A stretch of 64,000 nt of DNA from a virus (IMGVR_UViG_3300010882_000012), one strand, 5' to 3'. Shown: positions 23,933-33,029, counted from the stretch's first letter. A program made the numbers and translations. The notes: generated by a model not told the origin, from the sequence alone.

Positions 23933-23938
23933 AAAGAT

Positions 23939-23960
23939 AAAGAGGATTTAAATCCTCTTT
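23939..23960. terminator. bidirectional terminator, perfect 22-bp palindrome
   Basis: AAAGAGGATTT/AAATCCTCTTT between convergent genes, flanked by A and T runs. Confidence 0.75.
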
Positions 23961-23962
23961 TT

Positions 23963-25987
23963 TTATTTAATTAAAATCACAAATTCTTTATTTTCTCCAA
24001 AGTGACTTTTATTCTTTATCTCTTCAACTATGAAGTCTTTATACTTTTCTGTTTTATCAACTACAAAAAGATAACTTTCACACTTAAAGTTCTTTAAACA
24101 TATATCAATCCACTCATCACAACTTAAATCCTTTTGGCCTTCAAACCAAATCTCTTTCATATTATAAGGAGGGCAAGTAAATAAGCATTCATAAGTTCCT
24201 TCACATTCAAAAACATCTTTAACTTCTAAAAAAACATTTTCTATATCAAAATACTTTACAATTTCTTTAGATTCATTAATTACTATAGAATTTATATCTT
24301 GACCTATATATCTTTTACTTAAAGCAACTGTTCCTAACATTCTCCCTGAATATCCACTAAAAGGATCAAAGATTTCCCGATATTGATCCAGATACTTTTC
24401 TATTAAAGTTCTTGCTAAAGAAGGTTGAAATATAGTTACTTTCGGGGCTATTTTTGAAATATTAAATCCTTCTAAAATTCTGGATGGATCTATATTATTT
24501 TTATAAATAAATCTATTTTTTATAGCTCTAAGTAATAAATCATCTTGAAACCATGCTTCATAAGGTGAAAATTTTGCAACTTTAGATTTCCAAATAGAAT
24601 AATGAAAATGTCTTATAATTTTATCTCCTATTTGTGATTTTAATAAAAAATATTTATAATCTTTTAGTTGTTGGAAACTTGTTTTCAATATTTCATTTGA
24701 ATAAATTGGATATGGAAATTCTATAGATCTACACCAATTAAAAAGATTTTGAATATACTCATCATAATTCATTTCTAAAACATTAAAAAGTTCTTTAATT
24801 CCTTCTTCAAATTGTGATTCTAAAATTACTATAAATTTTACATTTTTTGGAATAAATAATATTCTATTTATATCAGGTTCTATATTTACTTTTTTACCAT
24901 TTTGATCTCCATAATATCCATGATAGTATAATCCATCACATTCAACCAAACAAATTAATTCAGTTTTTTCAATATCTTTAAATATTGCAAAATCAAAAGT
25001 TTTTGTGCAATTATCTCCTTGTATTGTATATAAATGTTCAAAAATTATACCCCTATTTGTTAAAACTTCTATCATTTTCTTTTCTAATTTTGAAAATTTA
25101 GAAGATTTTACTATTTTTGAACGAATTTCTTTTAAACAAAGTAAATATTTAACACCATATTTTTCTAAATTAGATTGAATAATTTTATCCTGAATAATAT
25201 TTGATTGAAATGGCCATTTGGTACCATAACGTTCTAAATTTGTTATATTTGTTTTATCCTGAATTTCTTTACATTTCATTGGATTATCCGTACCATATTT
25301 ATCAAAAAAGGTTTGTTTGCGTTTTTCTTGAAATTGTATAACATTACTAGGATTTTCAACACCATATTTTTTTAAATTTGTAGCAATTACTTTTTCTCGA
25401 ATTTCTTTAGATTGTCCCGGATTTTCAACACCATAATTTTGTTTTAATGTTTTTTTTTGTTTTTCTTGACAAATACTAGATTGAAATGGAAAATCTACAC
25501 CTAATTTATTTCTTATTGATTGTCTTACAGATTCTAATTGATATGCGTTTGTAACACCATGCCGTTCTATTAAAGTATTAATTATTTTTTCTCGAATTTC
25601 TTTAGATTGCCCCGGATTTTCAACACCATAATTTTTTAATAATGTCTGTTTTCCTTTCTCCTGAATTTCTTTACATTTCATTGGATTATCAACACCATAT
25701 TTATTAATAAAAGTTTGTTTTGCTTTTGCTTTTTGGATTATTTTAATACATTCTTTTTTTCCACATGTTTTATAATAATCTTTTATATAAAATTTTAATA
25801 ATTTATTACAATTTAAACATCTTTTTGGTTCTATTAAATTATTAAGTAATAAATAAATTTTTTCTTGATATGTTTCTATATTAGGAAATAAATTATCAAT
25901 TTCTTCTTTATTTTCTAAGTAAAGTTTTTCTTTTTTTGTCCAATGAAAATTAAAAAAATTATTTAATTTTTCTTTTAGTTCTTCCAT
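23963..25987 (-). CDS. fusion protein: Zn-finger + YGVxNP repeats + Vsr-like endonuclease + amino-type DNA methyltransferase domain (copy A)
   Basis: CLNC..C..C; YGVENPGQSKEI repeats; FDFAIF..VECDGLYYHG; DPFSGYSGR (motif I); FTCPPY (motif IV). Confidence 0.75.
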   Translation of the reverse strand: MEELKEKLNNFFNFHWTKKEKLYLENKEEIDNLFPNIETYQEKIYLLLNNLIEPKRCLNCNKLLKFYIKDYYKTCGKKECIKIIQKAKAKQTFINKYGVDNPMKCKEIQEKGKQTLLKNYGVENPGQSKEIREKIINTLIERHGVTNAYQLESVRQSIRNKLGVDFPFQSSICQEKQKKTLKQNYGVENPGQSKEIREKVIATNLKKYGVENPSNVIQFQEKRKQTFFDKYGTDNPMKCKEIQDKTNITNLERYGTKWPFQSNIIQDKIIQSNLEKYGVKYLLCLKEIRSKIVKSSKFSKLEKKMIEVLTNRGIIFEHLYTIQGDNCTKTFDFAIFKDIEKTELICLVECDGLYYHGYYGDQNGKKVNIEPDINRILFIPKNVKFIVILESQFEEGIKELFNVLEMNYDEYIQNLFNWCRSIEFPYPIYSNEILKTSFQQLKDYKYFLLKSQIGDKIIRHFHYSIWKSKVAKFSPYEAWFQDDLLLRAIKNRFIYKNNIDPSRILEGFNISKIAPKVTIFQPSLARTLIEKYLDQYREIFDPFSGYSGRMLGTVALSKRYIGQDINSIVINESKEIVKYFDIENVFLEVKDVFECEGTYECLFTCPPYNMKEIWFEGQKDLSCDEWIDICLKNFKCESYLFVVDKTEKYKDFIVEEIKNKSHFGENKEFVILIK

Positions 25988-26084
25988 TTTTTATTATTAT
26001 TTTATAAAATGTTCTCATTCATCTACACTATATTTTAATATATATTCAAATTTTTCAAAAGTTTTTTATATTTTTAAAATAAAA

Positions 26085-26106
26085 AAGGAGATAAATTTAT
26101 CTCCTT
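26085..26106 (-). terminator. terminator after tail tube, perfect 22-bp palindrome
   Basis: AAGGAGATAAA/TTTATCTCCTT with a T-run on the minus strand. Confidence 0.75.
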
Positions 26107-26134
26107 AATTTTATAACATATTGTTATTCAAGAA

Positions 26135-26701
26135 CTAAAGCCATACTTCATCCCAGTCGTCTACTCGTAATTTATATCCAGTTACTCTGTAGATGTCATC
26201 GGATTCCCAATCAACATCATTTGGTCCAACTACTTGCGTCATTGGAATACAAACTTGATAAGTAATCTGTCTAAAGATGTCACCATTAGCATTAAACTGA
26301 GTAACAACCAATGGACCTCCATGATAATCACGTTTCATTCCCCATTTACCTGTCAACGGATTAAAAGCTAAATCTGACCATTGTCTAAGGGCTTTGTAGA
26401 CGTACATTGAATTACTATCATTAAGGTTAACCTCAAATTCTAATGTTAGATCATGAGAATTTTCCATTGGTTTACCACCAACATAGCTTCTGTGTGCACC
26501 TTTGTATGATTGTTGTTGGACGTTCATATCTCCATCTTGACTACCAAGAAGACCATCAATTTTGATGATGTTGTTCATTACTAATGGCCAGTCTGATATT
26601 CCACTTGGAGGAGTTATCATTACGTCAAAGTAAGCTTTAAACACCGGATCCCAGTGTTTCATTGCTGCAATTGAGTTTTTATAGTGAGGTAAACCTGCCA
26701 T
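26135..26701 (-). CDS. gp19: tail tube protein (gp19-like)
   Basis: 188 aa, immediately downstream of sheath; LTLEF, ..RQW, D.W terminus. Confidence 0.8.
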   Translation of the reverse strand: MAGLPHYKNSIAAMKHWDPVFKAYFDVMITPPSGISDWPLVMNNIIKIDGLLGSQDGDMNVQQQSYKGAHRSYVGGKPMENSHDLTLEFEVNLNDSNSMYVYKALRQWSDLAFNPLTGKWGMKRDYHGGPLVVTQFNANGDIFRQITYQVCIPMTQVVGPNDVDWESDDIYRVTGYKLRVDDWDEVWL

Positions 26702-26741
26702 AATTTTCTATCTTTTTTTATCGTTTTGTTCAATTAAAATT

Positions 26742-26773
26742 AGGGAGATTAACTTTAGAGAATTAATCTCCCT
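26742..26773 (-). other. intergenic stem-loop between sheath and tube genes
   Basis: AGGGAGATTAA...TTAATCTCCCT, 11-bp stem. Confidence 0.55.
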
Positions 26774-26781
26774 TATTCTTA

Positions 26782-29700
26782 TTATGCTACTGTAAATCCT
26801 CCGGAGCTAATTGCACCAGTTTTCAATACAGTTACACGGTTAATCACTTTTTGTAATCCTCTTGCTGGTTCAATACCGATGTCGATAATACCAACATTTT
26901 GGTCAATAACTTCTGGAGTGTTGTTAGTTTCGTCCATAATTACCATAAAGTCGTAAATTCCACCTGCATTTCTTACAGTTTGCAAGTATCCATCTACAAT
27001 TGTTCTAATTTCAAGGCGTGTGCTAGCATCATTAAATTCAAAGATGTAGTTGCTCAAAATATCCTCTACAGTTTCTTCAATAGTAATCAACAAGTCTCTC
27101 ACATGCAAGTTGTTAAAAGCTGTCAAAGTACGTTGATAAGCTGTTTGGTTGCCATAGATCATAGGTCCAGTTTTCTTTGTGGTAATAATTGGATTTAATC
27201 CCATCGGTTCAATCCATTCACGGTCTGTTAACAAGTATTCATACTCAAGACCTGTCAATTTAGGATTACTCAAAATACCACGTCTTGGGCCAGCTGTAAT
27301 TACGTATGGTTGTCCATTGATGAACTTACGCACAAAGTTGTTTGAAACGTCAGCTGCTGGCGGAATCATTTTGTTTTTGTTTTGTTCGTAGATCTTCAAG
27401 AATGGAGTGAAAACACCACAGAATCTTGCACCATTTTCATCATCTGGTAAACTAAATCTGAATGATGGTCCTAAGCTTAAGTTACCACCTGTAGAGATGT
27501 ACTCAGTTCTTAATAATGGTTTTGGTTCTCCAAGATCTGGTCTTGGTTCATCAGTAAATCTAGGATCTGTTGATTGGATAAACTCTGAAATTGATGGAGC
27601 ATTAAGTAAAGCCATACATTTCAGTCTGCGTTTTGCAAGACGTGAAAGAATTGCTTTAGGTCCCATCATAGGTTCCAAACCACCTGCAAAAGTATCTACT
27701 ATGTAACGGAAAGAAATCAATTCTTTGTCAACTAAAGTAGCACCTAAATTAGTATCTTCAATTACGCCATAAATCTTCCAAAGTTGGTCACGACCACCAG
27801 GCATATGATAAGTTGTAATTGTAAAACCATTAAGAGCCGTAAATTGAAGATGATGTGCTATTTGTGGAATTGGTAACATTCTGTTAACAAAACTTACGCC
27901 TGCTTCATCAGTGTAAATTTCAACCGGTTCATTAACTTGAATTTCAAATTCAGTAAATCCTGTAGTTGCATTAGCACGTTTAATTTTATTGATAACCTTA
28001 GTCAATCTTGTTTCACCACCAGCTACATTAATATCCACGGCTAAATAATGCCCTACTTCAATATCAAGTGCATTTGCTGCATTTACTCTGAAAATTGTTT
28101 TGCTAGCATTCAAAGTACCATCAATAACAGGGACGTTTTGTTGGATTTTTGCTGCTGCCGATTGTATTGCGATGTAAGTTGGTGCTTGTAATGGATCACC
28201 GTCTCTATCTACTATCAAACCATGTTCTTCTGCAATATCTAACCATTCATCAACTAAGTGGTCTGTTTGAATACCTGCACGAATCCAAGAACCTGTATCC
28301 ATTTTGATAAGATCTGCAAAAGTATCAATTGGTGTATTCAATTCTGGATTAGCCCATTGTCTAATTCTTTGAACAGGAAGACCATAAAGACCAATTGCCG
28401 GCGCGAATGAGAAGTATCTAAGATCGGTAAGTTGTTCATTTGCAAACGCATAGTCACCATCAATTATTGAACGATTAACAATTTCGTCAAACAATTTGTT
28501 ACCAGGATAAACATCAATAGAAAATTTTTCACCTATTGCATTTTGCCATACGTCTTCGATGTAAGATGATTTGAAAATGAATTGCATACCTTCTTCAAGA
28601 TTTGGCATATAGTTCATTGCTGCTTCACCATTACAGTAAGTTACTTGACGATTTTCTAAAGTATTAGGTTGGGCTATACCACCAACAATAGGGCTGGCTG
28701 GAATACCAATTTCACCATTCAACCAATACTTAAACCAATTTAAGTGGATATCTGTTGTTGGTACATCTGCCATTAATTCTTCAAGAGTTTTGTAGAACTC
28801 AACTCTGTAATCAGTGTAAGAAACAGATGGATCTGGAATCATAGCTGGTACACTTGGATCAACTATTTCGCCTTGTGCTACCGGATTTGGTAAAAATTCA
28901 TACTCATTTTCTGTTCCTGGAGTTTCATCCCATACTTGTCCTTCGCCTCCTGGAAATGTTATACTATCCCAAGTTCCATTAAGTACTGTAGGTTTCCAAG
29001 CTGGATCTGGAATCATCGATGGATAAGCTAGATTAGGCACCATTGTTACAGTACTTGCTGCTTCACCGTCTTTTACTACCATGTAACGATTGTATCCTTT
29101 AACGTAAATCATGTCGAACTGACTGATAAACTGAGGAGGTCTCATTGTAGGTCCGTCAAGTGCAAAAGTATTATCAGGAAATACCATAGTGAGCTTTTGC
29201 TCAGTCGGATCAATATCTTTAATTGTAATACCATCCCAAATACCTGACCACTCTTCATTCTTAGTAGGATTTGAAAGCACTAATTCTAAAGCATTTCCAG
29301 TGCTTGTTACACTATCAACTTTAAGATATCCATTTTTGTTCAAAATAGCACCAGGGAAAGTTCCACCTTCACCAGTATCAGGATCAGCATCACCTGCTTC
29401 CATTACTCTTGAACCATATGCTTTAATCAAACTGTTAGAATTCAATACTGTTGCTAATTTAGTGTAATCTGAAACAGTAAATTGTTGTCCAGGAGCTAAC
29501 ATCTTAGGTCTTGGAATAACTAAAGTATTGAAGAACGGGCTTGAATTGTTTGTGTATGGTAATGATTTTACAAAAACATTTTGTTGTTTACCATTTACTT
29601 CATTAAAATCGGGTTCTGCAAAGTTAGTAGTTTCTGTTTCATCAATAATTGAATAATGAGAACTAAAAAACAACTCATCTGTAATAGGTCCAACATAACT

Positions 29701-30684
29701 CAAAAAGTTCATTGAAGATTTAGTAGAACCAATTAAAGAGTGTCCTATTAAGTCAAGTTTCCAATCTGAATTTTCATAGTCATCAAACATTGCACGATTT
29801 ACTACACAGAAAAGACCTGTTGTTCCTACTGTATTGTTCACAATATTTTCAATAAAATGGTTAACACCATTTCTATCTGTAAAATCTGGAATAATACAAC
29901 CTGTCATGTTTGCTACTAAAGTTACAGTATCATCCGTAATAAAGTACTCAATCATTTCGGTTTTAATACCATTAGCATCAAAGAATCTTGAATACAATGG
30001 ATCAATTGATAATGTTTCATAATTAGTCCAATCTCCTTCAACTACAATAACATCCAAAAAATAGTCTGAGATATAGTCAAATTCCTTAATAAAATCAGGA
30101 ACATTACCAGATCCATAGAATTCTCTTGCTGTAATATCAAAACCTTTAATGTTTCTTGCTTTTCTGATTAAAATCGAAAGTGGTCTTTGACTAAAATTAG
30201 TAAAAGAGAATAGCATATCTCTTGTAATTGGATTTAAATCTACAATAGCTTGAAAATAGCTTGTATCTGGAAACCAGAATCTTTCTTTATTGTAAAAACT
30301 TGCTATCAATTCTCTCGAAACATTTGCATTATCCTGTGTAATACTTGTCGAAAATGGACGGTACTCAATTTTGTCTCCTGTTGGCGTATTATCAAGAGCC
30401 AACAAATTCAAGGCATAAACAGGACCAGTTTGAAGACATGTCTCAATACTTCTATGGAAGAATGAACCTCTCTTTTCAAGAATAGTATCAACTTCTCCAA
30501 ATATCTGACGTGCTGATTTAACATCTCTTAAAAACACCGGCGCGTTGAATGGACCTCTACGAGAAAAACCAACTACAAGTCTAATCGTTTGAGTACTCAC
30601 TGTAATACTTTCACTCGCGTCAAATTCCACAGTATAAACACCTGCTGCTCTGAACTGATTAAGGTCTAAAGTTAATTTAGCCAT
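26782..30684 (-). CDS. gp18: tail sheath protein (gp18-like), 1300 aa with large central insertions
   Basis: GVYTVEFD, GFSRRGPFN, AGPRRG, LHVRDLL, FEFND, DETNNTPEVID. Confidence 0.93.
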   Translation of the reverse strand: MAKLTLDLNQFRAAGVYTVEFDASESITVSTQTIRLVVGFSRRGPFNAPVFLRDVKSARQIFGEVDTILEKRGSFFHRSIETCLQTGPVYALNLLALDNTPTGDKIEYRPFSTSITQDNANVSRELIASFYNKERFWFPDTSYFQAIVDLNPITRDMLFSFTNFSQRPLSILIRKARNIKGFDITAREFYGSGNVPDFIKEFDYISDYFLDVIVVEGDWTNYETLSIDPLYSRFFDANGIKTEMIEYFITDDTVTLVANMTGCIIPDFTDRNGVNHFIENIVNNTVGTTGLFCVVNRAMFDDYENSDWKLDLIGHSLIGSTKSSMNFLSYVGPITDELFFSSHYSIIDETETTNFAEPDFNEVNGKQQNVFVKSLPYTNNSSPFFNTLVIPRPKMLAPGQQFTVSDYTKLATVLNSNSLIKAYGSRVMEAGDADPDTGEGGTFPGAILNKNGYLKVDSVTSTGNALELVLSNPTKNEEWSGIWDGITIKDIDPTEQKLTMVFPDNTFALDGPTMRPPQFISQFDMIYVKGYNRYMVVKDGEAASTVTMVPNLAYPSMIPDPAWKPTVLNGTWDSITFPGGEGQVWDETPGTENEYEFLPNPVAQGEIVDPSVPAMIPDPSVSYTDYRVEFYKTLEELMADVPTTDIHLNWFKYWLNGEIGIPASPIVGGIAQPNTLENRQVTYCNGEAAMNYMPNLEEGMQFIFKSSYIEDVWQNAIGEKFSIDVYPGNKLFDEIVNRSIIDGDYAFANEQLTDLRYFSFAPAIGLYGLPVQRIRQWANPELNTPIDTFADLIKMDTGSWIRAGIQTDHLVDEWLDIAEEHGLIVDRDGDPLQAPTYIAIQSAAAKIQQNVPVIDGTLNASKTIFRVNAANALDIEVGHYLAVDINVAGGETRLTKVINKIKRANATTGFTEFEIQVNEPVEIYTDEAGVSFVNRMLPIPQIAHHLQFTALNGFTITTYHMPGGRDQLWKIYGVIEDTNLGATLVDKELISFRYIVDTFAGGLEPMMGPKAILSRLAKRRLKCMALLNAPSISEFIQSTDPRFTDEPRPDLGEPKPLLRTEYISTGGNLSLGPSFRFSLPDDENGARFCGVFTPFLKIYEQNKNKMIPPAADVSNNFVRKFINGQPYVITAGPRRGILSNPKLTGLEYEYLLTDREWIEPMGLNPIITTKKTGPMIYGNQTAYQRTLTAFNNLHVRDLLITIEETVEDILSNYIFEFNDASTRLEIRTIVDGYLQTVRNAGGIYDFMVIMDETNNTPEVIDQNVGIIDIGIEPARGLQKVINRVTVLKTGAISSGGFTVA

Positions 30685-30727
30685 ATTGTTAGAATTTTTT
30701 TAAATTTTCTTAGTTATTAACTACTTC

Positions 30728-30751
30728 TTACTATTTATTCCAGATTATTTT
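30728..30751 (-). promoter_or_regulatory. late-promoter motif upstream of sheath (proximal copy)
   Basis: AAAATAATCTGGAATAAATAGTAA on the minus strand, 24-nt identity to the consensus. Confidence 0.78.
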
Positions 30752-30779
30752 AGAATATCTAATAATTTTTTAGCCTAAC

Positions 30780-30799
30780 ATCTTTTACTATTTATTCCA
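30780..30799 (-). promoter_or_regulatory. late-promoter motif (distal copy), overlapping the stop codon of fusion copy B
   Basis: TGGAATAAATAGTAAAAGAT on the minus strand. Confidence 0.7.
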
Positions 30800-32696
30800 A
30801 TATTTTTTCAACTTTTTCACTTTTTATTAAAATCACAAATTCTTTATTTTCTCCAAAATTACTTTTATTTATTATTTCTTCAGTAATAAAATCTTTATAT
30901 TTTTCTGTTTTATCTACAACAAAAAGATATGAAGAACATTTAAAATTCTTTAAACATATATTTATCCATTCATCACAACTTAAATCTTTTTGTCCTTCTA
31001 TCCAAACTTCTTTAAGATTATAAGGAGGACAAGTAAACAAACAGTCATAAGATCCTTTTGATTTTATTATATCTTTACATTTTAATTGAACCTTGTTATT
31101 TAACTTTAAAAAATCTATCATATTTTTACTTTCTTTTATATGAATTTCATTTATATCTTGACCAATATAATTCTTATTTAAAGAAATTGTACCTAACATT
31201 CTACCAGAATAACCTGAAAATGGATCAAAAATTGTATTAAATTCATTAAGATATTTTTCAATTAATTGTTTAGCTCGCCATGCTTTAAAAGTTGTTACTT
31301 TCTGACAAATTTTTGAAATATGAAATCCTTCTAATATTCTATTTGGATCAATATTATTTTTATAAATAAGTCTATTTTTAATAACTTTCATAAGTAATTT
31401 ATCATCAAACCATGCTTCATATGGACTCAAATTATCTTTTTTTGCATGCCAAATAGAATGATGAAAATGACGAATAAGATTTGAACCTATTAAAGCTTTT
31501 TCTTTAAACAAAGTATATTTACAAAGTTCATCAAAACTTTTTTGTAAAACTTTTTCATTATATTTAGGATATGGAAATTCTATAGATCTACACCAATTAA
31601 AAATATCTTGAATATACTCATCATAATTCATTTCTAAAACTTTAAAAAGTTCTTTAACTCCTTCTTCAAATTGAGTTTCTATTATAGAAATAAATTTTAC
31701 GTTTTCAGGAATAAAATTTAATCTTTCAATATCACGTTCTATATTTACACGAATACCATCTTGATCTGAAAGATAACCGTGCCAATATAATCCATCACAT
31801 TCAATAAGAGCTTTTAAATTATTTTTATCATCAAAAATTGCAAAATCAAATTCTTTTATTTTATTTTTATCTTCAATTAAATAATGATGTTCAAATTTTA
31901 TATTTCTATTAATTAATAATTCTATAAGTTTTTTTTCTAAACGAGAAAATTGTCCTTCTTTTGTAACTTTATCTCTAAAACTTTTTGAATGCATAAGATG
32001 TATTACACCATAACGATCAAAAATTGTTTGTGTTATTTTATCTTTTATTAATGGATTTTGCGCTGGATTTTCAACATTATAACGTTCTAAACAAGTTTTT
32101 CTTATTTTCCCAGGATTATTATAATTTTTATCTCCATATATTTCTAAACAAGTTTGTTTTCCTTTATTATTTAATTCTTTTGAAGAAAATCCAATACCAT
32201 TATAACGTTCTTCACAAGTTATTTTAACTTTATTTTTAATTTCTTTAGAATACATCGGATGCCCATTATATTTTTCTTCCCATGTTTTATTTTTCTTATC
32301 AACTAAAAAAGAACTTGTGGAATTATATCTTTCTAATAAAGTTTGTTTTGTTTTTTCTTGTATTTCTTTATTTTGTTGTGGATTTTCTACACCAAATTTT
32401 TCAATACAAGTATTTTTAACTTTTTGAAATGTATTTTGATATCTACATGATTTTTTATCACATGTATTAGCATATTTTCTATTATTTAAAATAAATTTAA
32501 CATTTTCACCACAAATTGGACATTTTGGTATTTCTTGTAAATTATTTAAAAATAAAAAAATTCTTTCTTTATAATGAACAATATTTAAATGTGAAGAAAA
32601 AGAATCTATAACATCTTTATATTGTTCATAAATTTGTTTTCTTGTATTTCCTTTTTTAGAAAATAATAAAGACCTTAATTCTTTTTCAGTTAACAT
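30792..32696 (-). CDS. fusion protein: Zn-finger + repeats + Vsr-like endonuclease + DNA methyltransferase domain (copy B)
   Basis: CPICG..C..C; FGVENP repeats; FDFAIF..IECDGLYWHG; DPFSGYSGR; FTCPPY; C-terminal half closely similar to copy A. Confidence 0.75.
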   Translation of the reverse strand: MLTEKELRSLLFSKKGNTRKQIYEQYKDVIDSFSSHLNIVHYKERIFLFLNNLQEIPKCPICGENVKFILNNRKYANTCDKKSCRYQNTFQKVKNTCIEKFGVENPQQNKEIQEKTKQTLLERYNSTSSFLVDKKNKTWEEKYNGHPMYSKEIKNKVKITCEERYNGIGFSSKELNNKGKQTCLEIYGDKNYNNPGKIRKTCLERYNVENPAQNPLIKDKITQTIFDRYGVIHLMHSKSFRDKVTKEGQFSRLEKKLIELLINRNIKFEHHYLIEDKNKIKEFDFAIFDDKNNLKALIECDGLYWHGYLSDQDGIRVNIERDIERLNFIPENVKFISIIETQFEEGVKELFKVLEMNYDEYIQDIFNWCRSIEFPYPKYNEKVLQKSFDELCKYTLFKEKALIGSNLIRHFHHSIWHAKKDNLSPYEAWFDDKLLMKVIKNRLIYKNNIDPNRILEGFHISKICQKVTTFKAWRAKQLIEKYLNEFNTIFDPFSGYSGRMLGTISLNKNYIGQDINEIHIKESKNMIDFLKLNNKVQLKCKDIIKSKGSYDCLFTCPPYNLKEVWIEGQKDLSCDEWINICLKNFKCSSYLFVVDKTEKYKDFITEEIINKSNFGENKEFVILIKSEKVEKILE

Positions 32697-32860
32697 TAAA
32701 AAATAGTTTTTTTATATAAATCTGATAAAAATTCTCTTATTAATTTAGACATATTCCATCCTTTATTTTGCATATAAGCAAGTTCTTCTTTTTCTTTATT
32801 ATTTAATTTAACAACCAAAGTATGATGGCGTTTTATTTCTAATGATTTTTTTGTATTCAT
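32696..32860 (-). CDS. ribbon-helix-helix DNA-binding protein (54 aa), not in the ORF track
   Basis: MNTKKSLEIKRHHTLVVKLNNKEKEELAYMQNKGWNMSKLIREFLSDLYKKTIF; strand-helix-G.N.S.LIRE.L pattern; TAATG overlap with copy B. Confidence 0.7.
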   Translation of the reverse strand: MNTKKSLEIKRHHTLVVKLNNKEKEELAYMQNKGWNMSKLIREFLSDLYKKTIF

Positions 32861-32927: not shown

Positions 32928-32950
32928 AAAAAGCCATCATTTAGATGGCT
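32928..32950 (-). terminator. intrinsic terminator after the Ig-repeat gene
   Basis: AGCCATC...GATGGCT hairpin plus T-run on the minus strand. Confidence 0.65.
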
Positions 32951-33029
32951 CTTAAAGAGATTAAAGATTAAAATTCTAATTATTTATAAATCTTTATGGA
33001 ATTATAATCCCAAAAGATTATTGTTATAG

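Follow-up and report, generated by a model that had tools for sequence, protein, structure and literature searches.

Two termite-gut phage genes joining a Hef-type homing endonuclease to a predicted DNA amino-methyltransferase: a candidate cut-and-protect unit

Free-standing homing endonucleases leave their own target uninterrupted, and the escape of the carrier genome is usually explained by target polymorphism. Two genes in a 64,000-nucleotide stretch of DNA from an uncultured termite-gut jumbo phage (the window) raise the question of whether such a nuclease might carry a means of protection of its own, in the form of a fused methyltransferase.

Two paralogous genes around the sheath and tube genes

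The open reading frames of the window include two large minus-strand genes, HM1 and HM2, which are listed here together with the features that adjoin them.

23963..25987, minus strand: HM1 gene, 674 aa, consisting of Zn ribbon, repeats, Vsr-like nuclease and methyltransferase
26085..26106, minus strand: terminator-like hairpin separating the tube gene from HM1
30792..32696, minus strand: HM2 gene, 634 aa, architecture as HM1 with a shorter repeat array
32699..32860, minus strand: 54-aa ORF, overlapping the start of HM2 through its stop codon (TAATG)
32929..32953, minus strand: terminator-like hairpin separating the 1215-aa tail gene from the small ORF and HM2

The two proteins are paralogues, with 52% identity across 665 columns (E = 0). 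Their identity climbs from the N-terminal to the C-terminal end, from 35% in the Zn finger through 44% in the repeats (which also differ by a 56-residue indel), 63% in the nuclease and 64% in the linker to 73% in the methyltransferase core. With HM2 upstream of the sheath gene and HM1 downstream of the tube gene, the pair brackets sheath and tube. Both genes are AT-rich along their whole length, having GC contents of 0.21–0.23 (HM1 0.229, HM2 0.214) against 0.34–0.39 for the neighbouring genes (portal 0.337, sheath 0.354, tube 0.376, tail protein 0.385), and each has one terminator-like hairpin upstream. A sequence-only reading of this DNA had described two minus-strand paralogues at these positions, flanking the sheath–tube genes and more AT-rich than them, all of which is borne out. 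The interval that it gave, 23963–32860, begins correctly, but 32860 is the start of the 54-aa ORF and not of HM2. The product of this ORF is possibly a ribbon-helix-helix regulator, which we mention as a lead only; Pfam gave no match to it, and the other loci gave no homologue.

The nuclease half and its N-terminal arm

In HM1, an arm composed of a Zn ribbon and repeats (residues 40–290) lies N-terminal to a nuclease domain (residues 296–400).

25712..25870, minus strand: HM1 Zn ribbon, residues ~40–92, with C57, C60, C75 and C80; short strands in the model
25118..25711, minus strand: HM1 YGVxNP repeat array (DUF7487), approximately ten 23-residue helical repeats
24788..25102, minus strand: HM1 Vsr-like (EDxHD-type) nuclease, residues 296–400, with invariant E302, D332, D351, G352 and H356
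31641..31958, minus strand: HM2 Vsr-like nuclease, approximately residues 247–352, positioned by alignment to HM1

The model of the HM1 nuclease was matched by VIA to I-Bth0305I (PDB 3r3p; Z 8.5, rmsd 2.8, 81 aligned), to ngo0050 (3hrl; Z 8.4) and to Vsr (1cw0; Z 8.0, rmsd 3.2, 95 aligned), and Foldseek also matched it to 3r3p (prob 0.99, TMt 0.65). BpuSI was also among the fold matches. Within the family, E302, D332, D351 and H356 are invariant and D361 is kept in at least 90% (40 sequences), and we infer a residue-by-residue match of these conserved residues to the EDxHD positions. Using the N-terminal half, tblastn found matches to F-LimIII and to ‘homing endonucleases’ of CP220, CPt10 and RaK2, and there were matches to PHROG 3339 (1.4e-31) and 12131 (4.2e-30). 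Hef-type proteins have been assigned to the EDxHD family, which includes the homing endonuclease I-Bth0305I and in which homing has been proven (PMC3239194). F-LimIII of Dickeya phage LIMEstone1 is a Hef-type free-standing endonuclease, and the paper describing it cites Hef of the T-even phage U5 as a free-standing homing endonuclease (PMC3296691). We accordingly assign the nuclease half to the known Hef-type/EDxHD family of homing endonucleases, whose members include I-Bth0305I and F-LimIII. This agrees with the Vsr-like nuclease and the homing-endonuclease-like arm proposed earlier.

HM1 and HM2 share with I-Bth0305I and Hef-type proteins an arrangement in which the DNA-binding region precedes a Vsr-like nuclease, and the conserved acidic and histidine residues. 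Like Hef-type endonucleases they are phage-borne and sporadic, and adjoin conserved genes. They differ in carrying approximately 275 additional C-terminal residues, which constitute the methyltransferase module, and in the nature of the arm, which is a Zn ribbon with YGVxNP repeats rather than the NUMOD2 motifs of I-Bth0305I. Many Hef-type endonucleases, among them a third paralogue in the same phage genome, have no methyltransferase, and methylation is therefore not a form of protection that the Hef family requires.

The CxxC zinc finger and YGVxNP-type repeats that had been noticed in the arm are both well founded. The four cysteines of the ribbon are kept in at least 90% of 40 homologues, and the repeats match Pfam DUF7487 (PF24308) at 182.9 bits in HM1 and 83.6 bits in HM2, both above the gathering cutoff of 27. 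The HM1 repeats are modelled as approximately ten helix-turn units with pLDDT > 90. Zn ribbon and repeat array together presumably form a DNA-binding arm, and the length of the array suggests a rare, long target site.

The methyltransferase module and its partners

The C-terminal part of each protein is divided as follows.

24398..24787, minus strand: HM1 helical region that precedes the Rossmann core, residues 401–530, with HFHxSIW, SPYEAW and motif X conserved
23966..24397, minus strand: HM1 Rossmann methyltransferase core, residues 531–674, with motif I DPFSGYSGR, motif II GQDIN and motif IV TCPPY
30795..31640, minus strand: HM2 methyltransferase module, approximately residues 353–634

The model of the C-terminal domain has a class I Rossmann fold, and its top structural neighbours are RNA m6A/m2G methyltransferases: METTL5 (Z 15.8, rmsd 3.5, 173 aligned) and aTrm11 (Z 14.4). 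Among 25–42 diverse sequences, the motifs DPFSGxSGR, GQDIN and TCPPY show little or no variation; D252, G256, G259 and D275 (numbered within the piece comprising residues 290–674) are invariant, and the acidic residue after strand 2 is present. Profile searches matched DNA methyltransferases (PADLOC mad2, 2.5e-7; Type II MTase models, 4.6e-7). Against Pfam N6_N4_Mtase (PF01555), the relevant parts of HM1 and HM2 score 17.1 and 22.4 bits, both below the cutoff of 26.7; two homologues, P0197 with 42.8 bits and P0024 with 28.5 bits, pass it. The C-terminal half thus holds a genuine, apparently intact amino-methyltransferase domain, as the sequence-only reading had proposed in describing a SAM-dependent amino-methyltransferase core.

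Compared with the β-class N6-adenine/N4-cytosine methyltransferases (PF01555; N4C enzyme, PDB 8s9n), the stretch containing motifs X and I can be aligned, and close homologues of the module exceed the Pfam cutoff. However, motif I (residues 541–550) stands ahead of motif IV (residues 604–608) in both the model and the sequence, whereas the β class has motif IV first; and motif IV is invariantly TCPPY, with a cysteine where known amino-methyltransferases carry D, N or S. Our literature search found no described CPPY methyltransferase and no precedent for a cysteine opening motif IV. The sequence EFPYP (residues 422–426) was considered as a β-class motif IV and rejected, as the model has helices and a loop there and no strand.

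The single chain, with a nuclease of the PD-(D/E)xK superfamily followed by an amino-methyltransferase having motif I ahead of motif IV, is reminiscent of type IIC/IIG enzymes (BpuSI, PDB 3s1s; MmeI). In those enzymes a target-recognition domain follows the methyltransferase and is shared by both activities. HM1 and HM2 have none in that position, because the chain ends approximately 65 residues past motif IV and these are taken up by strands 5–7 of the fold; the helical region at residues 401–530 is a candidate for the target-recognition part. They differ further in their long N-terminal repeat arm, in having a Vsr-like rather than a BpuSI-like nuclease, and in being phage-encoded and mobile.

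The module constitutes a separate family of 350 clusters at E ≤ 1e-30 (50% clustering). Its fusion to a nuclease is common in uncultured large phages and is kept in more than 2000 full-length proteins (90% clustering), and its tight linkage to nucleases recurs over hundreds of phage contigs. In a census of 81 modules in 79 IMG/VR loci, at least 65 were fused to, or overlapped, a nuclease gene, and the nucleases were of more than one type: 44 modules were fused to a Vsr-like nuclease and 13 to a nuclease with a PD...ExK motif, while 8 lay in a frame of their own immediately behind a nuclease gene, 6 were Zn-ribbon forms, and for 10 no partner was found. There are also short nuclease–methyltransferase forms of approximately 390–440 aa that have no long arm, standalone forms of approximately 270 aa, and forms whose arm is of another kind (NUMOD3/HTH, double Zn ribbon). 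It had been suggested that the DNA-binding arm directs both cutting and methylation. This is not supported, because the module also occurs alone, with other arms and with another nuclease type, and because it is 73% identical between the paralogues while the arm falls to 35–44%.

Accessory status, proposed mechanism and alternatives

The closest relative is a 425-kb genome, estimated to be 97% complete, whose portal and tube are 68% and 70% identical to those in the window, and it contains no homologue of HM1 or HM2. On the basis of this absence, the low GC content and the hairpins upstream, HM1 and HM2 are accessory genes. Family members elsewhere are found directly 3′ of gp23 (locus L049) and directly 3′ of a 424-aa DNA_pol_B gene (L050), and one locus (L053) has two members within approximately 6 kb. 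At the gp23 site the module is seen only together with a nuclease, and is absent in approximately 20 relatives. Related nuclease genes split the gp23 capsid gene itself, and these splitting copies, which are small in number, all lack the module.

The search for empty sites suggested by the sequence-only reading succeeded as far as absence from the relative, but gave no exact empty site for either copy, because synteny with the nearest relative ends right after the portal gene and other relatives share only sheath–tube or a block ending in the portal. In contigs of four termite-gut metagenome runs, no joint cleanly skipped HM1 or HM2; the joints listed there were rejected as empty sites and are read as repeat artefacts, because they connect paralogous segments of the two genes and have sides that are short (20–40 nt). 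No RNA dataset carrying the sequence was among those listed. Among GenBank phages, a 12-kb megablast query had no near-identical counterpart, and neither the 1215-aa tail protein nor the L049 capsid protein picked up relatives in scans of viral contigs.

Our preferred reading, which we hold with a probability of roughly one half, is that HM1 and HM2 are diverged Hef-type free-standing homing endonucleases that carry a DNA amino-methyltransferase and act as a one-protein cut-and-protect unit. The Zn ribbon and repeat arm would hold the protein at a long site close to a conserved gene, and the nuclease would break the DNA of any co-infecting genome without the element. The methyltransferase, through a recognition surface of its own, would mark the carrier genome and so allow it to escape the fused nuclease, and the unit would spread by recombinational repair. 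Self-protection by methylation is plausible and is the role that we favour for the module. If protective, it would represent a second, general answer to the escape of the carrier genome, and would link homing endonucleases with restriction–modification systems, which are normally treated apart. More tentatively, methylation immunity may allow a homing endonuclease to attack targets that cannot diverge, such as capsid, sheath and polymerase genes; the protein might then be a hybrid of homing endonuclease and restriction–modification enzyme, in which the repeat array is a modular DNA-reading code that sets the place of homing. For study, the family offers compact nuclease–methyltransferase pairs and, in its arm, an uncharacterised DNA-binding structure of the repeat type.

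The architecture had been put forward as one not described as a system. For the fusion this stands, since our literature search found no description or test of a Hef-type nuclease–methyltransferase fusion. The cut-and-protect idea is not new, and only the modifying domain is, because the same logic has been published for the Mom-REase fusions of jumbo phages, for which Iyer et al. (2021; PMC7824862) predict protection of the phage's own DNA during an attack by the nuclease on DNA of the host or of superinfecting phages. These also combine a restriction-fold nuclease and a DNA base-modifying domain in one protein, but Mom is a GNAT-fold acyltransferase, whereas the C-terminal domain here is a Rossmann SAM methyltransferase, and a nuclease–SAM-methyltransferase fusion of this type is not reported in that paper. 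The C-terminal tail of the RaK2 Hef gave no match to Mom by Pfam or PDB sequence search.

Four other explanations were considered. It is possible, but unlikely, that the methyltransferase is cargo, namely an anti-restriction enzyme acting against host systems that pays for a selfish element and has a specificity unrelated to the nuclease target. The module looks self-contained and is conserved while the arm diverges, and jumbo phages often carry orphan methyltransferases (PMC7824862). However, a pure anti-restriction gene would be expected to be mostly standalone, and this is not what the census found, with its different nuclease types; the best 150 cluster representatives include only about four shorter than 320 aa, and all three ‘standalone’ genes examined overlap an upstream gene for a NUMOD3/HTH and Vsr-like nuclease. 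These upstream proteins (303–320 aa) are assigned as nucleases from the register of their motifs and from structure matches in Atlas, their match to the nuclease profile by hhalign being weak (E 0.038).

We find it more doubtful that the proteins are type IIC-like restriction–modification enzymes of the phage, which would degrade DNA of the host or of superinfecting phages by cutting at many sites, the phage's own DNA being methylated and the gene itself not homing. The short forms without a long arm, the Mom-REase precedent and the presence of BpuSI among the fold matches are in its favour. Against it, homing has been proven for members of the family to which the nuclease half belongs (PMC3239194; for Hef, as cited in PMC3296691), copies adjoin conserved genes and come and go among relatives, related nuclease genes split a capsid gene, and the long arm points to a rare site. 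A weapon of this kind and homing are nevertheless compatible, and can both be true at once.

A C-terminal domain with no DNA-methylating activity at all, perhaps an RNA methyltransferase or else a SAM-binding or DNA-gripping module without catalysis, is a reading that we regard as improbable. The nearest folds, the cysteine of motif IV and the Pfam scores of HM1 and HM2 would be in keeping with this; however, 25–42 diverse sequences show no variation at the SAM-binding and catalytic-loop residues, the sequence matches are to DNA methyltransferases, and the fusion partners of the domain are DNA nucleases. Finally, an accidental fusion without functional coupling, in which a homing endonuclease landed beside a resident methyltransferase and the gene boundary was lost, is very improbable: the split genes beside gp23 do overlap by 8–23 nt, but the methyltransferase is not resident at that site, the two copies in the window carry the module at two other sites in genes that are AT-rich throughout, and the fusion is retained in the more than 2000 full-length proteins noted above.

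Paralogous genes around the sheath and tube genes

We describe here two proteins, HM1 and HM2, which are predicted to be Hef-type homing endonucleases with a fused DNA methyltransferase and to belong to a large family. Their genes, and a third paralogue from the same genome, are as follows.

23963-25987, minus strand: HM1, 674 aa
30792-32696, minus strand: HM2, 634 aa
L004:1123-2166 (G000:C1:29501-30544 in the full record), minus strand: third paralogue, approximately 1.4 kb before the start of the window

HM1 and HM2 are 52% identical in an alignment that spans both ends. Identity climbs from the N-terminus to the C-terminus, from 35% in the zinc finger through 44% in the repeats (which contain a 56-residue indel), 63% in the nuclease and 64% in the linker to 73% in the methyltransferase core. 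The GC content is 0.229 for HM1 and 0.214 for HM2, against 0.34-0.39 in the genes for the portal, tube, sheath and a 1215-aa tail protein. The minus-strand gene order is tail protein, 54-aa ORF, HM2, sheath, tube and HM1, followed by the convergent portal gene. The sequence-only reading, of two AT-rich minus-strand paralogues flanking the sheath-tube pair, is therefore correct. Terminator-like hairpins lie upstream of both genes, one directly 5' of HM1 and the other 5' of the small ORF that precedes HM2. The window belongs to a 146-kb IMG/VR virus record with an estimated completeness of 56%, and its sequence is present in termite-gut metagenomes.

The stop codon of the 54-aa ORF (32699-32860, minus strand) overlaps the start codon of HM2 (TAATG). 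By eye it has a ribbon-helix-helix-like pattern, and an Atlas feature search returned NikA-like/RHH clusters at 0.90-0.91, which we treat as a lead only; Pfam gives no match for it, other family members have no homologue of it next to them, and HM1 lacks a counterpart. Antitoxin-like RHH genes are paired with other homing endonucleases in moraphages (PMC12619734). The middle of the 1300-aa tail sheath protein (26782-30684, minus strand; residues ~550-720) is unaligned in most relatives, which suggests a variable inserted domain. In four termite-gut runs, the summed contig depth is 2- to 10-fold above the flanks over parts of HM1 and HM2 (25409-26009; 30818-32620), and many contigs diverge from the window sequence inside these genes, suggesting further copies in other genomic contexts within the same communities.

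Domain structure of the HM proteins

Pfam identifies DUF7487 in the two proteins, at 182.9 and 83.6 bits. Among the PHROGs, two families named 'homing endonuclease' match the N-terminal half; the family that matches the C-terminal part is unnamed. The AlphaFold2 model of HM1 residues 1-400 (pLDDT 89) comprises a small zinc ribbon, an array of about ten helix-turn units and a compact α/β domain, confirming the proposed zinc finger, repeats and Vsr-like nuclease. In fold comparisons, which included Foldseek, the α/β domain (residues 296-400) resembles the catalytic domain of I-Bth0305I (Z 8.5), ngo0050, a DUF559-like protein (Z 8.4), and Vsr (Z 8.0). Five of its residues, E302, D332, D351, G352 and H356, do not vary among 40 homologues. 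A tblastn search with residues 1-400 matched annotated homing endonucleases including those of CP220/CPt10 and RaK2 and, from Dickeya phage LIMEstone1, F-LimIII, which has been classified as Hef-like (PMC3296691); none of these matches reaches into the methyltransferase part. Hef-type phage endonucleases have been assigned to the Vsr-like EDxHD family, type I-Bth0305I (Taylor et al. 2011; PMC3239194). The third paralogue, at 347 aa, is a plain DUF7487 protein that covers the full profile (repeats and nuclease) and has no methyltransferase.

In the model of residues 290-674 (pLDDT 89, pTM 0.82), a helical region leads into a Rossmann fold of seven strands in the usual order. The best fold matches are amino-methyltransferases, namely METTL5 (Z 15.8), aTrm11 (Z 14.4), TGS1, Trm14 and RsmD-like proteins, and the Foldseek matches also include BpuSI and an HsdM subunit of type I. 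Conservation is complete at motif I (DPFSGxSGR), at the acidic residue that follows strand 2 (GQD) and at motif IV (TCPPY). Together these results bear out the expected SAM-dependent methyltransferase core. A β-class permutation is ruled out: motif I precedes motif IV, unlike in the β-class amino-methyltransferases. Sequence comparison relates the domain to DNA methyltransferases: PADLOC gave mad2 (2.5e-7) and Type II methyltransferase models (4.6e-7), an N4-cytosine enzyme was matched weakly at the profile level, and Pfam N6_N4_Mtase, under its cutoff in HM1 and HM2, is over it in the homologous proteins P0197 (49% identical, 42.8 bits) and P0024. The domain may nevertheless be inactive or RNA-directed, because motif IV contains a cysteine and the structural neighbours are RNA methyltransferases.

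Association of the methyltransferase module with nucleases

The full fused architecture is common, occurring in more than 2199 proteins (90% clustering) on contigs of up to 224 kb. A profile of the module alone, run against 1.84 billion representatives, found 350 clusters at E<=1e-30; among the best 150 of these, only about four are shorter than 320 aa, and in most the module ends a protein of 500-830 aa. We then counted partners for 81 modules in 79 IMG/VR loci. In-frame fusion to a Vsr-like nuclease accounts for 44; 13 are fused to repeats and another type of nuclease, marked by a PD...E[IV]K motif; eight are encoded in their own frame immediately 3' of a nuclease gene; six are double-zinc-ribbon forms on contigs of 158-553 kb, as in Lak phages; and for the remaining ten no partner was detected. 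The variant forms are found at these loci.

L095, L097, L109-L116, L120, L121: PD...E[IV]K-nuclease variant, with the Vsr-like domain replaced (FDSxWE...PDF...E[IV]KG)
L054:2158-4062 (Lak-A2), L128, L130, L134, L136-L138: Lak-type megaphage form, with the module behind two zinc ribbons and a lysine-rich spacer

For the PD...E[IV]K nuclease, the Pfam families phage endonuclease I, TnsA-like and PDDEXK_3 all score under threshold, and the Lak-type forms have no recognisable nuclease domain. Three apparently standalone module genes (266-270 aa) each overlap an upstream gene of 303-320 aa by 8-23 nt. Each upstream gene encodes motifs of the NUMOD3 or HTH type, and the C-terminal domain of its product is in Vsr-like motif register, with an Atlas model that matches DUF7487 clusters at a TM of 0.86-0.91.

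This recurrent coupling to more than one kind of nuclease, whether by fusion or by translational linkage, points to joint action of the nuclease and the methyltransferase. The same linkage statistics speak against the methyltransferase being an anti-restriction enzyme carried as cargo, and against an accidental fusion. The proposal that the DNA-binding arm directs both activities was not supported: the module occurs with unrelated arms, is conserved between HM1 and HM2 while their arms diverge, and has its own conserved helical region, from which we infer a recognition of its own that is independent of the arm.

The likeliest putative role of the methyltransferase is to mark the carrier genome against its own nuclease. 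The nuclease would then spare the carrier, and unmarked co-infecting genomes would be cut and then repaired from it. Such a role fits free-standing endonuclease genes, which leave their own target undisrupted. A restriction-like weapon acting without homing was also considered; weapon and homing functions would be compatible. The cut-and-protect concept has a precedent in the same logic predicted for Mom-REase fusions of jumbo phages (Iyer et al. 2021; PMC7824862), the modifying domain here being a methyltransferase; we found no description of this methyltransferase version in the literature.

Genomic distribution and the gp23 hotspot

The nearest relative that we found, with portal and tube proteins 68% and 70% identical, is represented by a 425-kb record (estimated completeness 97%), in which no part of HM1 gave a match. 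Synteny with this relative (L040) extends over about 12 genes in the block upstream of the portal gene and stops right after the portal, at 23933-23962, exactly at the boundary with HM1. We therefore conclude that the HM genes are not core. Absence from the relative supports accessory status; an exact empty site was not obtained, since synteny ends after the portal. In the relative, approximately 35 kb separates the portal gene and the sheath-tube pair, which together with the break at HM1 indicates that the nuclease genes mark module boundaries. Elsewhere, full-length homologues directly follow a gp23 capsid gene (L049) and directly follow and overlap a 424-aa DNA_pol_B gene (L050), and in a further contig (L053) about 6 kb separates a full-length copy from another, weaker DUF7487 gene.

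The surroundings of related T4-like capsid genes were surveyed in 49 loci. Here the module occurs only alongside a nuclease, in two distinct phages, and about 20 relatives have neither. The capsid gene itself is split by related nuclease genes in several contigs: in six T4-like loci (L168, L175, L176, L177, L182, L183), gp23 is in two to five pieces, cut by NUMOD3-type Vsr-like nuclease genes, with three such inserts in L182 and L183. The phage with a split nuclease-methyltransferase pair beside gp23 (L056, L057; also L098-L103) is translated correctly only when TGA is read as Trp, and it therefore appears to have a recoded stop codon.
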